Origin: an uncultured Planctomycetaceae bacterium
GTDB taxonomy: Bacteria; Planctomycetota; Phycisphaerae; SM23-33
DNA: 64,000 nt
Assembly: GCA_964536835.1 (NCBI GenBank)
Contig: CAZIAZ010000001.1
Coordinates: 49,525 to 113,524, forward strand
Direction of reading: 5' to 3'
Below the pieces are notes generated by a model, which was not told the DNA's origin, did no database searches, and saw only the letters and a list, made by a program, of their open reading frames with translations. How positions within the stretch are numbered: the stretch's first letter is position 1; the number at the start of each line of letters is the position of its first letter. Below are positions 6,892-45,906 of this stretch, piece by piece. The translations under genes and the position numbers were made by a program.

Positions 6892-8115
6892 ATGGCCAAA
6901 TTCAAATACGAAATTCAGAAAGCCAACCAGCAGATAGTCACCGGTATAGTTGAAGGCGCCTCCATTATGGAGGCGTCGGCAAAGGTTCGTCAGTTGGGCG
7001 GGTATCTTGTAAAAATCGAGCCGGCGATGAGTGCCGCCAGCGTAATCGACAAAATGCGCAATATTCGCATAGAGTCGCTTCCCAGCCACAAGGACATAAT
7101 GGGTCTGACGAAACAGCTGGCGGTCATGGTTCGCGCAGGCATAAGTATACGAGATGCACTGGAAGGCATCGCCGAGCAGCAGAAAAATCTGCGATTTCGC
7201 GACATACTCCGGCAATGCCGGGCTGATGTGGAATCCGGCAACCAGTTTTCAGATGCAATCGCAAAAAACCCCAAAGTTTTCTCGCTCATGTACGTGAACA
7301 TGGTGCGCGCATCCGAAATGTCCGGCACTTTTGCAAAAATGCTCGACCGCATAGGAAAATATCTCGAAGAACAGCACGAAACGAGAAGTATGGTGCGAGG
7401 CGCGATGATATATCCGGCGGTTCTCTTTTGTATGTCCGTCGGCGCAGTCATCTTTCTGCTTACGTGGGTTCTGCCGCGATTTATGGGTGTATTCAGGGGC
7501 AAGGAGCAGCTTTTGCCGAAGCCCACTAAAATGCTCATGGCGATGAGCAACTTCATGATTGCACATTGGCCGATAATACTGGTCGGCGCAGTCGTATTTA
7601 TCGTATTTATAATAGCCCTCAACAAAACGAAAAAAGGAAGACGATTTCTGGATCTTCTCAAGCTCAAAGTACCCATTCTGTCCAAAATGTTCCGTGCTAT
7701 TTATATCGCCCGCAGCCTTCAGACTATGGGTGAACTGGTTTTAGCCGGCGTACCGATGCTGGAAGTACTTCAGATAACATCCGACATTGCGGGAAACGGG
7801 TATTACTACGACATGTGGCAGAAAGTTAAAAACTCGGTAAAGGAGGGCAATAAAATAGTCACCGAACTTAACAACAGTCCGTTGCTGCCGCAGAGTGTCG
7901 TACAGATGATAGGCTCAGGCGAGGATTCCGGCCGTCTGGGTGAAGTTCTGGAAGACGTTTCCGAATTTTACGCAAAAGAACTCAGAGATACAATCAAGGC
8001 GGTTACCGCACTGCTTGAACCGTTGATGATAGTTTTTATGGGCTTTGTCGTAGGCTTTATCGCCATGAGCATCATCCTGCCGGTATTCAAGATGTCTAGC
8101 CTGGCCGGCAAATGA
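6892..8115 (+). CDS. pilC: Type IV pilus inner-membrane platform protein PilC (GspF family)
   Basis: 407 aa with two GspF repeats, each with TM helices. Follows pilB and pilT. Confidence 0.9.
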   Translation: MAKFKYEIQKANQQIVTGIVEGASIMEASAKVRQLGGYLVKIEPAMSAASVIDKMRNIRIESLPSHKDIMGLTKQLAVMVRAGISIRDALEGIAEQQKNLRFRDILRQCRADVESGNQFSDAIAKNPKVFSLMYVNMVRASEMSGTFAKMLDRIGKYLEEQHETRSMVRGAMIYPAVLFCMSVGAVIFLLTWVLPRFMGVFRGKEQLLPKPTKMLMAMSNFMIAHWPIILVGAVVFIVFIIALNKTKKGRRFLDLLKLKVPILSKMFRAIYIARSLQTMGELVLAGVPMLEVLQITSDIAGNGYYYDMWQKVKNSVKEGNKIVTELNNSPLLPQSVVQMIGSGEDSGRLGEVLEDVSEFYAKELRDTIKAVTALLEPLMIVFMGFVVGFIAMSIILPVFKMSSLAGK

Positions 8116-8222
8116 CAAAAGCCCCATAACCGATTATTTTCGCAAAGATTAACGCCCCGTATTGACGCCTGATTTTGAGCAGGAATCTGTTGCATATTGC
8201 CGGATTATATGTAATACTTAAG

Positions 8223-8374
8223 GCAGTTCTTGAAAAAATGTTCCATTTGGCCTTGCTGTAAGGTTTTTCGACTACGCCCGTCTGCATCGGAAACCATATA
8301 AGGTTGCCTGCTTCGACGTCCTTGTCAGAAAACCTTTAGCTGGCGTCAAAAAAGAAAAAACTTTCAAGAACTGC
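8223..8374. repeat. MITE-like palindromic intergenic element with a conserved 34-nt core
   Basis: 13-bp terminal inverted repeats gcagttcttgaaa (8223-8235) and tttcaagaactgc (8362-8374) flank the core ctgcatcggaaaccatataaggttgcctgcttcg (8283-8316). That core is identical to 27160-27193. Confidence 0.65.
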
Positions 8375-8405
8375 TCTAGCGAAGGTAAAGGAAGGAATTC
8401 AGAAT

Positions 8406-8744
8406 ATGGATTTGAACGTAGAAAAAAAGGACGGAGTGGCGATAGTGACTCTTTTGGGAAGTCATCTTGACGCCAGCAATCATGAATTGTTCATGCAGGA
8501 CATAACACCCGTCATCGAAGAAAATCCTAATCTGCTGCTCGATATCGGAGAATTACAGGCATTGGACAGTTCCGGCCTGGGGGCGTTTGCGTATTGTATG
8601 CGAACGGCGCGCGACGCCGGCGGCAGATTGACGATATGTCGTCCTTCGCCGCGGGTTCTGGTTACATTCGAACTGGTGCACATAGACAGAATCATCGGCG
8701 TATACGACACGCGGGATGCCGCCGTGGATTCATACAAAAAATAA
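8406..8744 (+). CDS. STAS-domain anti-sigma-factor antagonist (SpoIIAA-like)
   Basis: 112 aa. The LDxSxxxxIDSSGLG block carries the conserved phosphorylatable Ser context. Confidence 0.8.
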   Translation: MDLNVEKKDGVAIVTLLGSHLDASNHELFMQDITPVIEENPNLLLDIGELQALDSSGLGAFAYCMRTARDAGGRLTICRPSPRVLVTFELVHIDRIIGVYDTRDAAVDSYKK

Positions 8745-8775: not shown

Positions 8776-10635
8776 TTACATTTTTCTGCTTTTTTCCAAA
8801 ATATCTTTCAATTCGTCGCAGACTTTTTCGACCTGTCTGTCTTTAAGGTTGAGTATGTCTTTCAATGCCTGGCCGATGGCCGGGATGTATTTCTCTATGT
8901 AGCTGCGTTTTTTGAGTTCCTGCCTGATTCGGGACGTTTTACGAATATGCGCTCCCAGTTTTCTGCCGCATTCCTGGAGAGCGAGTCTTATTTCCTTCAA
9001 AATATCGGGATACGATGCGATAGCCTCTTTTGATTCGCTCGTAAAGGGGACCCACACGCTGCCCATATGTATGACTATGGTCAAATCGCCAGCCGGCAGG
9101 GCACCGCGGCTCTGTGAGAGGCCATACTTGCGCCAGCTCATCTGTGCCACGCTTTTGTAAATCGCGCATGCTCCCTGCTGATACTGCAGCGGCACACGAT
9201 TGGCGAGGCGGAGCACTCGCGCCAGAGAATCTCCGCCATTGTCGTCATCGGCCGACGTCGCGTCATCATTATCGTCGTCATTTTCGGTTTCATCAAGCAG
9301 GGTTTGCTGCTGTTGCGACTGGCAGGCTGGATTTTTGCCGTATGCGATAGCCGCTTCTATGACGAACGGATTGCCGCGATAGACCGCCGGCTTGCGCGAG
9401 ATGGCGGCGTAAAATTCCGCGTCGACCACCTGTTTTAATCCGGCAATCAACTGTTCGTGGCCGATGGGCACGATGCAGTCCGTATTCGGCGCGAGTATTT
9501 TGACGTCGTTTATTGCGACGTGGAGTGCTCTGGCCTTATCGCCGTCGACGCCCGCTGGCCGTGTTTTTGGAGTTAGACCCATGCCTGCTTTTTTGATTAT
9601 CTCGTCGGCGAGCTTGGGCGAGATGCGGGAAAATTCGCTCGTGAAAAACTGCTGCAGATTTTTAGCAGTCGTATCCTGGAGCATTTTTATGAAAACGCCC
9701 AGTTCCACTCCATGCGGATGGGGCTTGATTTCCTTGGGGATTGCGGGCAGTTCCATGACCGAGGCGGTGTAGGAAATATCGCGTCCGTCCGGCGTTTTAT
9801 ATTTGAATGTAACATGAGGATTTGCGACGGCCGTCTGCTGGAGATATTCATCTACGCTCTGGCGGCCTTTCTGATAGCGGGCTTCCAGCTCTATCTCCAC
9901 GCAAGTGCCGTGTTCCGGAGCCCAGTCGACGATTTCATCCGCGAGGATTTCCGGTTTGTTATTTCGCGTGTCGATTTTAAGCGTATATGAATGAGCCGGC
10001 GAGCGTTTGCCTGTGCGGCTGATGATTTTGACCGGCTTGCCCGTAGTCAAAAGGCCATACATGCCGGCTGCGGATATGCCGATACCCTGCTGGCCCCTGC
10101 TCATCCTCAGCCTGTGAAATTTACTCCCGTAAAGCAGTCTGCCGAAGATATTGGGTATCTGCTGCCTGACGATGCCAGGGCCGTTATCCTGTACCATGAC
10201 CCGAAAATGCGTCTCGGAAATCTGGTCAATGGCGACTTCTACCAGGGGCATTATGCCGGCTTCTTCGCAAGCATCCAGCGAGTTGTCAACCGCTTCTTTT
10301 ACCGTGGTCAGCAAAGCCTTTCTGGGATTGTCGAATCCCAGCAGATGGCGGTTCTTGGCGAAAAATTCGCTTACCGAAATACTCCGTTGAGCCTTGGCCA
10401 TGGATTCCGCCGTAGCATATTTCTGCTTCGCCGATTTTCTTTTCGTTACAGGCGAGTGTTCTTCCGTTTCTTCCGGAAGTTGAGGATTGGAGGGTGGTGT
10501 TTTTTTGCTTATCCGTTTGGCTTTAGCAGGTTTTTCCGCCACAGTTGACGATTCGGCGGTCACCTGGTTGTCGTCGAAAAGAAATCCTGTTGCGTCTTTT
10601 TTTGAGGTTTTTGTGTTGGGGGCTTTTTTGGCCAT
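8776..10635 (-). CDS. top6B: DNA topoisomerase VI subunit B (Top6B), with a basic H1-like N-terminal tail and an acidic insert
   Basis: GHKL Bergerat-fold motifs: EAVDNSLDA (N box), DNGPGI (G1), SRGQQGIGISAAGMY (G2). Also the Top6B-specific RLANRVPLQYQQGACAI, an H2TH region, and a transducer with conserved Lys. AAGGAG sits 7 bp upstream of the ATG. Confidence 0.85.
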   Translation of the reverse strand: MAKKAPNTKTSKKDATGFLFDDNQVTAESSTVAEKPAKAKRISKKTPPSNPQLPEETEEHSPVTKRKSAKQKYATAESMAKAQRSISVSEFFAKNRHLLGFDNPRKALLTTVKEAVDNSLDACEEAGIMPLVEVAIDQISETHFRVMVQDNGPGIVRQQIPNIFGRLLYGSKFHRLRMSRGQQGIGISAAGMYGLLTTGKPVKIISRTGKRSPAHSYTLKIDTRNNKPEILADEIVDWAPEHGTCVEIELEARYQKGRQSVDEYLQQTAVANPHVTFKYKTPDGRDISYTASVMELPAIPKEIKPHPHGVELGVFIKMLQDTTAKNLQQFFTSEFSRISPKLADEIIKKAGMGLTPKTRPAGVDGDKARALHVAINDVKILAPNTDCIVPIGHEQLIAGLKQVVDAEFYAAISRKPAVYRGNPFVIEAAIAYGKNPACQSQQQQTLLDETENDDDNDDATSADDDNGGDSLARVLRLANRVPLQYQQGACAIYKSVAQMSWRKYGLSQSRGALPAGDLTIVIHMGSVWVPFTSESKEAIASYPDILKEIRLALQECGRKLGAHIRKTSRIRQELKKRSYIEKYIPAIGQALKDILNLKDRQVEKVCDELKDILEKSRKM

Positions 10636-10684
10636 CCGTGGCTCCTTCGGTCCGTATATTCGTACAACGTATTTATAAGATTTT

Positions 10685-10886
10685 CATTTGTCCGTCTATC
10701 GGTGGACATTTTTATCTATGCTTTTTTAAAAAAACGGAAAATTACGACAGGCATATCAAAATTTTTTACGCGTTAAAACCGTTTAGAATCATATTTGTCA
10801 GGCTTTCGTTTATCTGCTTGTCGGGGGATATTTTTATCTATGTTTTTTAAAAAAACCGGAAAATTACGACCGTCATATTAAAAACT
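10685..10886. repeat. Two tandem copies of a ~85-bp hairpin-rich repeat unit (same family as 16750-16913 and 1783-1950)
   Basis: Copy 1 runs 10689-10762 and copy 2 runs 10798-10886. Both match caggctttcg…ggRgataYttTcatctaYgKttttaaaaaaCCGgaaaattacgaMNgNcatatYaaaa and align to 16815-16905. Confidence 0.7.
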
Positions 10887-16725: not shown

Positions 16726-16749
16726 TTTTTTATGTTATGCGATAAACCA

Positions 16750-16913
16750 TAGCGGCTCTCTAAAATTTTTTGAGAACCGCTATAATCAATAGTGAATCTC
16801 TACGGGTTAAAACCCGTAGCATCATAGTCATCAGGCTTTCGCCTGTCCGCCTCACGGCGGATACTTTCATCTACGGTTTAAAAACCGTAGAATTACGAAG
16901 GACATATTAAAAC
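16750..16913. repeat. Hairpin-rich modular intergenic repeat (reference copy)
   Basis: Contains perfect hairpins tacgggtt-aa-aacccgta and ctacggttt-aa-aaaccgtag, plus agcggctctc…gagaaccgct. Homologous to 10685-10886 and to the inverted copy at 1783-1950. Confidence 0.7.
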
Positions 16914-24964: not shown

Positions 24965-27034
24965 ATGGACATTCAACTCGATACGCCGGTGCAATATGTA
25001 AAACGGGTCGGCCCAGCCAGAGCCGAGCAACTTGCGGCATTGAATATTCACAACGTCGAAGATCTCATAATGCACTTCCCTCGCAGATTCGATCTTCGCA
25101 GGCAGGCACAGCCGATAGCATCGCTCAACGACGGCAATGAAGCAACGGTAGTCGGCACGGTAATAACCGCCAAACTCGGCGGCCCAAGGAAAAAGCCCAT
25201 CTTTTCGGCTACCATCGAGGATGATACGGCGACCATTTCAATCCGCTGGTTTTTCGGCGGATATCTCGCAAAGACGATTCAGGAAGGCACGGTCATAGCG
25301 GTATCGGGCAAAGTCTGCCGTTATCGCGGCGCGCTGCAGTTCATCAATCCCGGACATCAGGTAATTTACGACCCGCACGGAACGTCTCTCGACCGCGATG
25401 AACTCATGCCGGTATATCCGGCTAGCGGCAAACTCTCCAGCAATATCATAGCCGGCATAATCAAAATCGTTCTGCCGGAAGTGCCGCGGCTGATTCGTCC
25501 CTGGTTCGACAAGGCATTCCTCGCCAAGCGAAGCCTCATGGACAGGCCCACTGCGATAACAGCCATGCACAATCCCGACGACCGTGAGCATTGGCTGCAG
25601 GCGCGGCGGCGGTTAGCCTACGACGAATGCATGTTGATGCAGCTTGGAATCGCACTTATGCGCACGCGGGAAGTTTCCAGGCCGGCCCACTCGCTTAAAT
25701 GGACACCGGCGATAGATTCGCACATCCGCGCCAGATTCCCGTTTGAATTGACGGCTGCCCAGAACGGCGCCATTAAGGAAATAGTATCCGACCTTGCAAA
25801 AAATCACCCGATGAACCGGTTGGTACAGGGCGACGTCGGCAGCGGCAAAACAGTCGTCGCGGTTTATGCGGCACTCACTGCGGTAGCGAATAAAAAGCAG
25901 GTCGCCATAATGGCGCCAACAGAAATTCTTGCCCGCCAGCATTACGAAAAAATCACCCGATACCTCGACGGCAGCCAGGTTCGCACGGCACTGCTGGTCG
26001 GTGCAATGCCCGGCAATGCGGCTGACCGCATCAGGGCTGAGCTCGCAAATGGAGATGTGCATATTGTAGTCGGCACTCATGCACTGCTCGGCGAAACGGT
26101 GAAATTCCGCGAGCTGGCACTTGTAATAGTGGACGAGCAGCACAAGTTCGGCGTGGAGCAGCGAACCGGCCTTCGCGGCAAGGGATTCGCGCCGCATTAC
26201 CTGGTCATGACGGCGACGCCGATACCGCGAACGCTGGCTATGACAGTTTTCGGCGACCTGGACGTTTCGACGATAGATTCTCTGCCGCCCGGCCGCGGCG
26301 TTACGCATACCAGTTGCGTGACGCCGTCAAAATTTGACGAAGTTATCGATTTCACAGCAAACAAAATCCGGCAGGGTCAGCAGGCATACTTCATCTATCC
26401 GCTGGTAACGCCGTCGCCGACGCTGGAACTCCAAGCCGCCGAGCAGGCGCTGAAAAAACTCTCTGCCGGCCCATTGGGCGAATTCGGCGTGGGAATGATT
26501 CACGGCCAAATGAAGGCGGAACAGAAAAACGATATCATGCGGGCATTCGCGGCCGGCCGCATAAAAATTCTCGTGGCATCAGTGGTGGTCGAAGTCGGCG
26601 TAGATGTGTCGCAGGCAAATGTAATTGTAATAAACCACGCCGAACGTTTCGGCTTAGCCCAGCTTCATCAGCTCAGGGGTCGCGTCGGCAGAAGCGCCGA
26701 TGACGCAAATTGCATACTCGTCGCATCGCCAAATAACCCCATTGCAAAACGACGCATGGAAATTCTGTGTGAAACGTCAGACGGATTTAAAATTTCCGAG
26801 GAAGACTTGCGGCTGAGAGGGCCTGGAGAGATTTTCGGCACACGTCAGCACGGCATGCCGGAATTGAAGGTGGCTGACCTTGTGGAAGATTTCGATCTGC
26901 TGCGGCTGGCGAGGCGGGACGCTTTCAAAATAATAGAAGAAGACCCCGACCTGGCCGCTCCGCATAATCAGCAACTCCGCCGTATGATGCTGCGAATGTA
27001 CGCCGGAAAATTGACCTTCATAACCGGAGCATAA
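24965..27034 (+). CDS. recG: ATP-dependent DNA helicase RecG
   Basis: 689 aa. Wedge/OB domain, then SF2 helicase motifs (GDVGSGKT, DEQH, TATPIPRT) and the TRG motif region. Confidence 0.9.
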   Translation: MDIQLDTPVQYVKRVGPARAEQLAALNIHNVEDLIMHFPRRFDLRRQAQPIASLNDGNEATVVGTVITAKLGGPRKKPIFSATIEDDTATISIRWFFGGYLAKTIQEGTVIAVSGKVCRYRGALQFINPGHQVIYDPHGTSLDRDELMPVYPASGKLSSNIIAGIIKIVLPEVPRLIRPWFDKAFLAKRSLMDRPTAITAMHNPDDREHWLQARRRLAYDECMLMQLGIALMRTREVSRPAHSLKWTPAIDSHIRARFPFELTAAQNGAIKEIVSDLAKNHPMNRLVQGDVGSGKTVVAVYAALTAVANKKQVAIMAPTEILARQHYEKITRYLDGSQVRTALLVGAMPGNAADRIRAELANGDVHIVVGTHALLGETVKFRELALVIVDEQHKFGVEQRTGLRGKGFAPHYLVMTATPIPRTLAMTVFGDLDVSTIDSLPPGRGVTHTSCVTPSKFDEVIDFTANKIRQGQQAYFIYPLVTPSPTLELQAAEQALKKLSAGPLGEFGVGMIHGQMKAEQKNDIMRAFAAGRIKILVASVVVEVGVDVSQANVIVINHAERFGLAQLHQLRGRVGRSADDANCILVASPNNPIAKRRMEILCETSDGFKISEEDLRLRGPGEIFGTRQHGMPELKVADLVEDFDLLRLARRDAFKIIEEDPDLAAPHNQQLRRMMLRMYAGKLTFITGA

Positions 27035-27096
27035 CCGGCTTTCAAAATTTCCGCCCAGCCGGCCACTCTTGTAGATGTCATCGAGTTTTTCCCCAT

Positions 27097-27257
27097 TAGA
27101 GCATATTAAACTTGACTTTGCGCTTGTTGCTGTTTGCGGCGTCGGCTGGCTGCGTCAGGCTGCATCGGAAACCATATAAGGTTGCCTGCTTCGCCTTCCT
27201 TGCCAGCCTCGTCCTCAACGACGCAACAAGTCGCAATTTCAAATTTAACATGCTCTA
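27097..27257. repeat. Palindromic intergenic element with the same conserved 34-nt core as 8223-8374
   Basis: A long imperfect inverted repeat, tagagcatattaaacttgactttgcgcttgttgc (27097-27130) against gcaacaagtcgcaatttcaaatttaacatgctcta (27224-27257). The core ctgcatcggaaaccatataaggttgcctgcttcg lies at 27160-27193. Confidence 0.65.
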
Positions 27258-27339
27258 AAAAATCCAAGTGGTATTTTTCTGAACGATAATATAACGTTTT
27301 TTAAAAATTACTTTCCTCTTAAAAAAATATTTTAACCTG

Positions 27340-28044
27340 TCAATCAACATCCTGCCCTGAAATACCGTCGGTAGTAAGATTCGGATCAGGGTAACCGTCG
27401 TTCGCGGTGTGCATTTCCCCGGCACGCAAAAACCGGACCGACCCGTCAGCGAAAACAAAATTCCTTGCGCCGTAATCGCTCCACCAGCCGTTATCCGATG
27501 CAAAATCGTCATGGTTGCCGTTCCATTCTCCCGAAAGTATCTTTTTTGACGTATATGTCAGTGCATTGCCGTTCTGCACAATGGTGGGATATTCCGATTG
27601 ACACGTATAGGAGTATACCTTGTCGACCATATCGTTTATCTGTTTTAAAGAATGATAAAAACTCATGGAATAGGCGTAACTCGTAGCGTCGTATGTCGTC
27701 TTGGCGGCTGGGTCAGCCGGACAGAGCATGACGGAATGCGCACCGGATATACCGGCATGCATGGCAAGCTCATCAGCCATCACGTCGCGCATGCCGCGGC
27801 CCATCCACGTCCAGTAAAACGGCGACGTCGAAACAGGATCCTGCCTGGCCGGGTAAATATCATTATAATTACTGCGATACATCTCGATTGCTTTATAAAT
27901 ATTGCCCAAATTGACCTGGCAGAGGATTTTGCGGCTCATCTCCTTAGCCTGCGAAAGCGACGGCAGAAGAATGCTGGCTAATAATGATATTATCCCCACG
28001 ACCATCAGAAGTTCGATTAGTGAAAAGGCTTTTTTTGTGCGCAT
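27340..28044 (-). CDS. Prepilin-type N-terminal cleavage/methylation domain protein with DUF1559 (HX9DG) domain; pseudopilin-like
   Basis: N-terminus KKAFSLIELLMVVGIISLLASILLP is a class III signal/methylation motif. C-terminus carries NFVFADGSVRFL (the H-X9-DG motif). This architecture is typical of Planctomycetota. Confidence 0.8.
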   Translation of the reverse strand: MRTKKAFSLIELLMVVGIISLLASILLPSLSQAKEMSRKILCQVNLGNIYKAIEMYRSNYNDIYPARQDPVSTSPFYWTWMGRGMRDVMADELAMHAGISGAHSVMLCPADPAAKTTYDATSYAYSMSFYHSLKQINDMVDKVYSYTCQSEYPTIVQNGNALTYTSKKILSGEWNGNHDDFASDNGWWSDYGARNFVFADGSVRFLRAGEMHTANDGYPDPNLTTDGISGQDVD

Positions 28045-40769: not shown

Positions 40770-40838
40770 CTCAATAACACAGCCGATATTCGTTGCCTTT
40801 CGGAATCGTTTCGGATATAATTCCCGCTATGTTTTTTA

Positions 40839-40871
40839 GAGCAGTTCTCAAAAAAATTTTGAGAACTGCTC
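40839..40871. repeat. Perfect 13-bp-stem hairpin (gagcagttctcaa / ttgagaactgctc) with tagagca terminus
   Basis: Read directly. The terminus motif tagagca is shared with the elements at 27097, 1783 and 8362-8376 (reverse complement). Confidence 0.6.
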
Positions 40872-41037
40872 CAGATTCGAACCGGTGTCGTCATCTGCAT
40901 TTTCCGGCATAATATTTCATCGTACGGAAATTCGCTTTTACTGTTTTTTAAAAATTTTAAATTTAAAATTTTAAAAAACGGTTTTTACGTATATCGCGAT
41001 GGCAGTCTGACCGGAAACGCATGCAGACGACATTGAT

Positions 41038-45752: not shown

Positions 45753-45906
45753 TCATATATCTCCAAATTTTTTACTTTTTTAATAACACCTCAAAATGAC
45801 GGATTCACTTTACCAGACCTGATAACGCAAATTGTTCACTTTGAGAATTTTTTTAAATCTTTAAATTTAAATTTTGAAAAATTTAAAAATTTACAATTTT
45901 AAAAAA

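Follow-up and report, generated by a model that had tools for sequence, protein, structure and literature searches.

The two palindromic intergenic elements described here, which lie in a single analysed stretch of 64,000 nucleotides (hereafter ‘the window’), are very probably copies of one non-autonomous MITE family of approximately 160 bp that resides in Phycisphaerae (Planctomycetota). The family is previously undescribed, and no MITE family described for Planctomycetes was found in the literature searched. Its members display several features by which MITEs are recognized: they are non-coding and shorter than 300 bp, carry terminal inverted repeats, occur in many copies, are present at a given site in one genome and absent in another, and are accompanied by a target duplication. 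A MITE family with the shared core at its heart was among the roles suggested in the initial annotation of this DNA, and that suggestion is borne out by copies at many unrelated loci, by empty sites in relatives and by the duplication of TA; the accompanying view that the two sites held two different elements gives way to that of a single family, because their arms have common tips and a common order.

The host of the window is an uncultured Phycisphaerae, the name under which an identical PilC is entered at NCBI; this DNA is also present in several anaerobic-digester metagenomes and in the MAG GCA_035403485.1. The core that first drew attention to the two sites is the 34-mer CTGCATCGGAAACCATATAAGGTTGCCTGCTTCG, which occurs exactly twice in the window, both times on the plus strand (Table 1). 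The identical 34-nt core described earlier is therefore real, its first copy starting at 8282 and not, as had been given, spanning 8283-8316, which is one base off. No third match was found in the window when up to three mismatches were allowed, and a chance origin of the repeat is ruled out, with 0 occurrences expected from 100 shuffles. The similarity of the two copies outlasts the 34-mer, and extends across 57 nt at 88% identity.

The terminal inverted repeats and the palindromic elements of ~155 bp that had been outlined around these cores are likewise real, with limits that are now read as 160 bp and 161 bp. In the first copy, positions 8223-8235 (GCAGTTCTTGAAA) form the perfect complement of 8362-8374 (13 nt), and the longer segments 8219-8235 and 8362-8378 are complementary except at the tip (TAAGGCAG versus TAGAGCAG); in the second, the pairing segments are 27096-27122 and 27232-27258 (27 nt, 85%). 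Both copies are imperfect palindromes with the shared core at the apex, where the central module of the first contains the apical hairpin GGAAACC-ATATAA-GGTTGCC, and both are predicted to fold as long hairpins (-58.7 kcal/mol, z -5.2 versus shuffles, for 8219-8378; -73.5 kcal/mol, z -8.8 versus shuffles, for 27097-27257). A profile of the family, when run on the window, recovered only these two copies, at E = 6.5e-28 (8219) and E = 1.6e-48 (27097).

Table 1. Coordinates of the elements, their parts, their subfamilies and the associated genes (window positions unless a locus is named)
Feature	Position	Strand	Remarks
Complete MITE copy, subfamily B	8219..8378	+	160 bp including terminal TA; ends TAAGGCAG...CTGCTCTA
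B copy, left terminal inverted repeat TAAGGCAGTTCTTGAAA	8219..8235	+	TA at 8219-8220
B copy, right terminal inverted repeat TTTCAAGAACTGCTCTA	8362..8378	+	TA at 8377-8378
B copy, conserved central module, 57 nt	8272..8328	+	contains 34-mer 8282-8315; apex of predicted hairpin
Complete MITE copy, subfamily A	27097..27257	+	161 bp including terminal TA; ends TAGAGCAT...ATGCTCTA
A copy, left arm TAGAGCATATTAAACTTGACTTTGCGCTTGTTGC	27097..27130	+	inverted repeat with 27224-27257
A copy, right arm GCAACAAGTCGCAATTTCAAATTTAACATGCTCTA	27224..27257	+	inverted repeat with 27097-27130
A copy, conserved central module	27150..27206	+	34-mer at 27160-27193
Probable relic hairpin, 37 bp	40837..40873		TAGAGCAGTTCTCAAAA-AAA-TTTTGAGAACTGCTCCA, near-perfect; two B-type terminal repeats, no interior
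pilC	6892-8115		upstream of B copy; T2SSF domain
STAS gene (anti-sigma-antagonist)	8406-8744		downstream of B copy
recG	24965-27034		upstream of A copy; RecG wedge and helicase domains
Minus-strand gene	27340-28044	-	its 3' end faces the A copy (convergent spacer)
Subfamily A	window 27097		the abundant type
Subfamily B	window 8219; L019:4729-4883		L019 copy at another locus, loop ATGCA
Subfamily C	L013, L016, L032, L048		
Subfamily D	L044		halves in L018 and L027
Subfamily E	L040		tips TWAGGCAC
Subfamily F	L033:9530-9691		fully compensated apical stem GGAATAC/GTATTCC
Subfamily G	L016:345-542		199 nt; larger GC-rich apical hairpin in place of apex
Core-less form	L033:5786-5880		95 nt, A/F-type terminal repeats
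Truncated copy	L031		
Transposase genes	L050: 13606-14892, 18411-19718, 19737-20927		DDE_Tnp_1/DDE_5

A scan of metagenomes, together with a profile search of the fetched loci, identified at least seven subfamilies and several shorter forms, with full-size units of 160-162 bp. One genome harbours subfamilies A, B and F together (A and F on one contig; A and B both in the window and on L019), and C, D and E were found on contigs of 57-68% GC, versus 52% for the window, with neighbouring genes that match Phycisphaerae or Planctomycetota; one gene that is shared displays only 41% protein identity. What the subfamilies have in common are 7-nt tips (TAGAGCA or TAAGGCA) and a centre of the form GCGTCAG.CTGCATCGG-(variable hairpin)-CCTGCTTCGCCTTCCTTGC, while the arms between tips and centre differ in sequence and keep their self-complementarity. 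Among six subfamily representatives, mean identity amounts to 81% in the tips, 41% in the outer arms, 56% in the inner arms, 89% in the core flanks and 64% in the apical hairpin; the outer arms of A and B are 26% identical. The extent of the conserved centre depends on the pair of subfamilies compared, from approximately 95 nt among A, C and D to 57 nt between A and B and the flanks only between A and F, and the apical hairpin covaries, being AACC/GGTT in most subfamilies and AATAC/GTATT in F, with stem-extending loop changes in C, D and E.

Selection on the core had been proposed from the two window copies, and is upheld by core flanks that stay 89% identical over six subfamilies, some of them from genomes of 57-68% GC, against 41% for the outer arms. 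The exact 34 nt, however, do not form the conserved unit that they had been taken for: the apical stem-loop varies and covaries between subfamilies, and it is the sequences beside it that are kept, so that the 34-mer is, on this comparison, a mix of conserved and variable parts. Subfamilies B2 and F, from the same genome, differ within it. We infer that the perfect identity of the two window copies over 34 nt reflects their residence in one genome, whether through shared recent ancestry or through conversion.

Genome-wide occurrence of the 34-mer, proposed earlier as a check, was approached with patterns derived from the core, in two collections. In 185,579 species-representative genomes, the 20-mer GGAAACCATATAAGGTTGCC gave three unrelated chance matches (two in one Bacteroidales MAG, one in an archaeon), the host genome not being among them, and a wide conservation of that 20-mer is thereby ruled out. 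A scan of metagenomes in which the loop was left free (ATCGGAAACCNNNNNNGGTTGCCTGC) returned 39 loci, approximately 24 of them with the match at the very end of a contig, which indicates a repeat that breaks assemblies. Several assemblies end inside the element, often in the core (L004 at window 8309; L051, a 160-kb contig, at window 27104; L014; and L054), and the family is a practical cause of MAG fragmentation for the organism of the window. The unit of the 27097 type (subfamily A) was found, in metagenomes of the same population, at 17-25 loci with differing flanks and ~99% identity from TA to TA, a number of insertion sites that derives from 17 distinct left and 17 distinct right flanks on contigs from a few related digester metagenomes, representing one population and including no closed genome. 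The extracted A copies are almost constant from TAGAGCA to TGCTCTA; because they are near-identical, and because the search pattern fixed 20 core positions, a comparison of post-insertion constraint among them is uninformative. Fifteen pattern matches on viral contigs were all due to chance, and blastn of the element against plasmids gave no match.

Empty sites in relatives delimit the unit that moves. In L049, whose PilC is 86% identical, the 90-nt spacer between pilC and the STAS gene aligns on both sides of 8219-8378 with exactly that unit absent, at a junction too diverged for a target duplication to be read. At a second empty site, in L070 (neighbouring histidine kinase 96% identical), the sequence is ...GATTGACAAGGTCGCT-TA-GTACCACACC (in a shorter view, ...CAAGGTCGCT-TA-GTACCAC), and the corresponding filled site in L044, which is occupied by a subfamily D element, is ...GATTGACAAGGCCCAT-CA-[155 nt]-TA-GTACCACACC (in a shorter view, ...CAAGGCCCAT-CA-[155 nt]-TA-GTACCAC). 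The net gain is 157 nt, that is, 155 + 2, with one TA in the empty site and TA on both sides of the filled one, the left of which has mutated to CA. The TA duplication is thus derived from one clean empty site, at which the left TA reads CA and the adjacent 5 nt differ at 3 positions; the flanks of other copies agree with it. The left TA has a pyrimidine on its outer side at ~28 of 29 sites, and the right TA a purine on its outer side at ~22 of 25 (counted by hand), in the pattern Y/TA...TA/R. The target looks like a YTAR-like sequence in which TA is duplicated, and the moving unit, as read from these alignments, runs from TA to TA. At the recG site no empty allele was found; every contig with the neighbouring gene either has the element or ends in it.

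Transposases of the IS630 family insert at TA and duplicate it (PMC2170065), and bacterial MITEs are elements of 100-200 bp with terminal inverted repeats, terminal TA and long stem-loops (PMC2229807). The combination of a YTAR target with TA duplication, a hallmark of IS630/Tc1-mariner transposition (PMC2170065) that most bacterial MITEs display as well (PMC2229807), points to a transposase of the IS630/Tc1 type. No transposase gene adjoined any copy in the fetched loci, and none with matching ends was found; long TAGAGCA...TGCTCTA pairs in the fetched DNA, considered as the ends of a transposase partner, were coincidental. In a distant relative (L050, PilC 65% identical, on a 2.4-Mb contig), three transposase genes lie near the pil cluster, and no copy of the MITE family was present in the 21 kb fetched from that contig.

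On balance, mobilization of the family is probably the work of a DDE transposase related to IS630/Tc1-mariner, a cut-and-paste enzyme that would act in trans, cleave at the conserved tips and duplicate TA. An element that arose from an insertion sequence by simple deletion would not be expected to have a conserved centre, which tells against this account. A cis-acting role of the core in mobilization is favoured. It is tentatively proposed that the central module is needed in cis for propagation, for example as a site for the transposase or for a host accessory protein at the apex of a hairpin or cruciform; an RNA-level role for that module is rather unlikely. The IHF consensus is absent from every subfamily.

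That one genome contains three subfamilies whose arms are unrelated is awkward for a single transposase that reads the arms and is poorly explained by one, which leaves room for a structure-based recognition of tips and apex. In an unlikely extension of that idea, the mobilizing machinery or a host factor would recognize the central module and not the arms, in a folded hairpin with conserved tips at its foot and a conserved asymmetric apex, for which the arms of ~50 bp would serve only as complementary spacer. Recognition of this kind would account for the coexistence and spread, within a genome, of subfamilies that differ in their arms and, if true, would be of a type that has not been described among MITEs that duplicate TA. 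The same unlikely reading has a variant in which the apex is a mobile regulatory RNA module, which would be under selection across Phycisphaerae.

It is more doubtful still that the folded single strand is read, in place of an arm-reading DDE transposase, by a structure-specific enzyme that recognizes both the tips at its foot and the conserved, asymmetric apex (an HUH/tyrosine enzyme of the RAYT or IS200/IS605 type, or one that is integrase-like). Such an enzyme would be compatible with A, B and F in one genome, with only tips and core in common and arms that are 26-41% identical yet always complementary, and the core has fixed unpaired bases in its predicted fold (U, UC, UUC and UCCUU) that resemble the extrahelical bases by which folded recombination sites such as attC are given their strand identity. 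The TA on both sides of the filled site, versus a single TA in the empty one, nevertheless fits a staggered cut of the DDE type, whereas HUH elements produce no target duplication and have no terminal inverted repeats, and no structure-specific enzyme was present near any copy in the gene tables of the fetched loci. Nor do the tips bear GTAG or CGTC, the tags by which REP sequences are marked (PMC3733652).

Both window copies lie, as had been described, after the last gene of an operon (pilC and recG, respectively). Upstream of the B copy is a conserved promoter-like block, and downstream of it comes the ribosome-binding site for STAS, the start codon of which lies 27 nt beyond the element. 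That block (~8176-8218; 45 nt, TTGCAT-N17-AATACT) is almost unchanged in the relative L049, where the rest of the pilC-STAS spacer has diverged, and the element starts at the base right after it. The block is a probable promoter of the STAS gene; if so, the STAS mRNA would start with a hairpin of 160 nt. Any co-transcribed copy would add a double-stranded stem of ~70 bp, which at 8219 would lie within the STAS 5' leader and could change the expression of that gene. Across the family, copies insert in either orientation and mostly at the 3' ends of genes, with 31 of 46 flanking genes turning their 3' end toward the element. Among the 11 spacers for which both neighbours are known, five are convergent and only one is divergent, and the co-directional spacers contain four copies in sense and one in antisense orientation, a ratio of 4:1 that is not significant. 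This preference for 3' ends is the usual pattern of repeats that survive where they are least harmful.

Covariation across the copies, a further check proposed with the initial annotation, gave an answer in two parts: pairing is kept, and no strand signal accompanies it. In a consensus fold (RNAalifold, 12 sequences, 53 predicted pairs), compensatory changes were found at 30 of the 53 pairs, versus 6-14 when partners were slid by 1-3 columns; 91.5% of cells pair on the consensus fold, versus 32-45% with partners slid by 1-3 columns, and 0 of 500 shuffles reached the observed values. These figures demonstrate that the predicted complementarity is maintained across the family. They do not establish that selection acts on an RNA, since covariation of the same sort is expected of two ends that must be bound by one protein. 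G-U and A-C mismatches are about equally frequent, insertion orientation is likewise uninformative and, since no strand signal emerges from either, covariation does not separate symmetry at the level of DNA from the folding of RNA. The candidate of a small RNA encoded by a stand-alone gene, also raised earlier, received no support: Rfam gave no match at gathering score in the window and none at E <=1 in four loci (subfamilies A, C, D and E), neither window copy contains a sigma-70-like promoter or an intrinsic terminator, and the family inserts in either orientation. No open frame is conserved across the subfamilies, and a small protein was rejected as a candidate on finding that a 51-aa ORF running across the A copy on the minus strand is not maintained elsewhere in the family.

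It is also very unlikely that the core represents a small structured RNA or cis-regulatory RNA module (such as an RNase target, or an anti-Shine-Dalgarno-like UCCUU bulge) that is merely spread by the repeat and would be selected by way of the transcripts of the host. The covariation of the apical hairpin between flanking sequences that stay fixed would suit such a module, as would the preference for 3' ends (31/46 flanks), the sense orientation of 4/5 co-directional copies, the position of the 8219 copy within a probable 5' leader, and the effects of ERIC and Correia elements on mRNA stability (PMC2229807, PMC2649163). The absence of Rfam matches (gathering score, E <=1) and of an internal promoter or terminator in the window copies argues against it, however, as do the lack of significance of the 4:1 orientation, the fact that an element in a convergent spacer is antisense to one neighbour, and mismatch frequencies that favour neither strand. 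Scarcely credible, finally, is the notion that two unrelated older palindromes (for example, terminator hairpins) each gained a separate mobile core of 57 nt, for which core-less tip-like hairpins in the window (40837-40873, 16751-16785 and the palindrome at 1781) and the core-less 95-nt variant might be cited, but against which stand an A unit that keeps the same sequence over its full TA-to-TA length at 17-25 loci, amid flanks that are unrelated, two empty sites that both lack the whole unit and not the core alone, limits of the centre that vary by subfamily pair (and thus reflect graded conservation, not a discrete insert), and a core that is not bounded by any duplication or repeat.

In architecture, the nearest known counterparts of this MITE family are the Correia and ERIC elements. 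With the Correia elements (CREE/NEMIS) of Neisseria its members have in common terminal inverted repeats (~26 bp) that exist in more than one variant per genome, a TA duplication in which an end sometimes reads CA, a core that is conserved and directional, long hairpin transcripts (predicted here) and no known transposase (PMC2649163, PMC2229807). The Correia size classes of 153-157, 104-108 and 69-73 bp (PMC2649163, PMC2229807) have their likeness in the 160-162 bp units, the 95-bp core-less form and the 37-bp terminal-repeat pair described here, and the short and long forms of Correia elements are paralleled by the 95-nt and 199-nt variants. The tips also look alike (TATAGCGGATTAAATTT in Neisseria, TAGAGCATGTTAAATTT here). 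For all the sameness of architecture, homology is not demonstrable, as the similarity is not significant either by profile or by local alignment. In particular, the family profile found nothing (E > 0.1) in 24 Neisseria loci with real CREE copies (prophage contigs), local alignments of the family with Correia elements were merely z = 1-3 above shuffles, and the Correia repeat TATAG[CT]GGATTAA(CAAAAA/ATTTAAA)... is identical to the ends of the family at only 9-13 of 26 positions, ungapped (patterns from PMC2649163). Unlike Correia elements, which in their long form contain an IHF site, the family is devoid of an IHF consensus and has its hosts in another phylum, and its arms diverge far more between subfamilies than its centre.

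The ERIC (or IRU) element of enterobacteria, an imperfect palindrome of ~127 bp, has a highly conserved inverted repeat at its centre and short repeats and TA at its ends; it duplicates its target, is found in transcribed intergenic regions, and exerts an orientation-dependent effect on mRNA stability (PMC2229807). The family described here differs from it in length and in its tips, and a blastn search of 5,426 E. coli genomes (ERIC carriers) with the element as query gave no match. The RUP element of Streptococcus pneumoniae, like other IS630-derived MITEs, also inserts at TA, and its terminal repeats are thought to be read by an IS630-family transposase in trans (PMC2229807); RUP has a known parental insertion sequence whose ends match its own, whereas none was found for the present family, and RUP, at 107 bp, has no reported conserved centre common to subfamilies with differing arms. 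A likeness to REP and REPIN sequences, which RAYT mobilizes, lies in short extragenic hairpin palindromes that are spread within a genome by a trans-acting enzyme. REPs measure 20-40 bp, have GTAG or CGTC as a tag at their foot and do not duplicate their target (PMC3733652); the present family differs in its 160-bp unit, its terminal inverted repeats, its YTAGAGCA tips and its TA duplication.

Additional repeats are found elsewhere in the window. The sharing of tagagca with other window sites, mentioned in the initial annotation, was confirmed, in that TTAGAGCA is found at 1781 and at 40836. The hairpin at 40837-40873, between the gene for a SAM hydroxide adenosyltransferase and gyrA, is probably a terminal-repeat pair that remained after loss of the interior. 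Both of its arms read AGCAGTTCTCAAAA after the tip and match the B/B2 consensus TAGAGCAGTTCTCAAAA at 17/17 positions on the left and 16/17 on the right; two positions, TC/TT and CA/TG, distinguish them from the arms of the B copy in the window (TTCTCAAAA versus TTCTTGAAA). The site at 1781-1796 is a perfect palindrome of 12 nt (AGAGCATGCTCT) with tips as in the A element (TAGAGCAT/GCTCTGA), and the TAG in this palindrome serves as stop codon for pilM (720-1784). The palindrome might have arisen from an element by extreme deletion, might represent a footprint, or might be coincidental.

A hairpin similar to the one at 40837-40873 is found at 16749-16786 (TAGCGGCTCTCTAAAA/TTTTGAGAACCGCTA), just 3' of a class II aminoacyl-tRNA synthetase gene (tRNA-synt_2b, HGTP_anticodon). 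A 27-nt motif, TTTTTTGAGAACCGC..TAA.C.ATAG, occurs three times in the window, at 1850, 16726 and 16766 (the region 1845-1876 being included), and a hairpin, CTACGGGTT..A.CCCGTA, is found downstream in both motif regions, at 1929-1948 (near 1850) and at 16800-16819 (near 16770); the motif and the hairpin may together belong to another small repeat, or represent a regulatory signal that the two regions share. Two direct repeats of 92 nt (10670-10761 and 10792-10883; 80% identical, 122 nt apart) are located in the spacer upstream of a minus-strand gene (8776-10635) for a bacterial protein of 619 aa that contains HATPase_c and Topo-VIb transducer domains and is similar to topoisomerase VI B. AT-rich repeats of the type TTTAAATTTAAAATTTTAAAAA are present at 40931-40977 and 45835-45905, upstream of gyrA and of another gene.

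For an abundant Phycisphaerae population of anaerobic digesters, the practical meaning of these observations is that a 160-bp unit breaks its assemblies, and that it should be masked or annotated as such, and not as a regulatory RNA or a terminator. Its modular conservation, in which tips and centre are kept and the arms are free to change so long as they remain paired, is unusually clear and spans genomes of very different GC content. The family thereby offers a tractable case in which to ask what purpose the conserved centres of palindromic MITEs serve, a question that stands equally for ERIC and for Correia elements.
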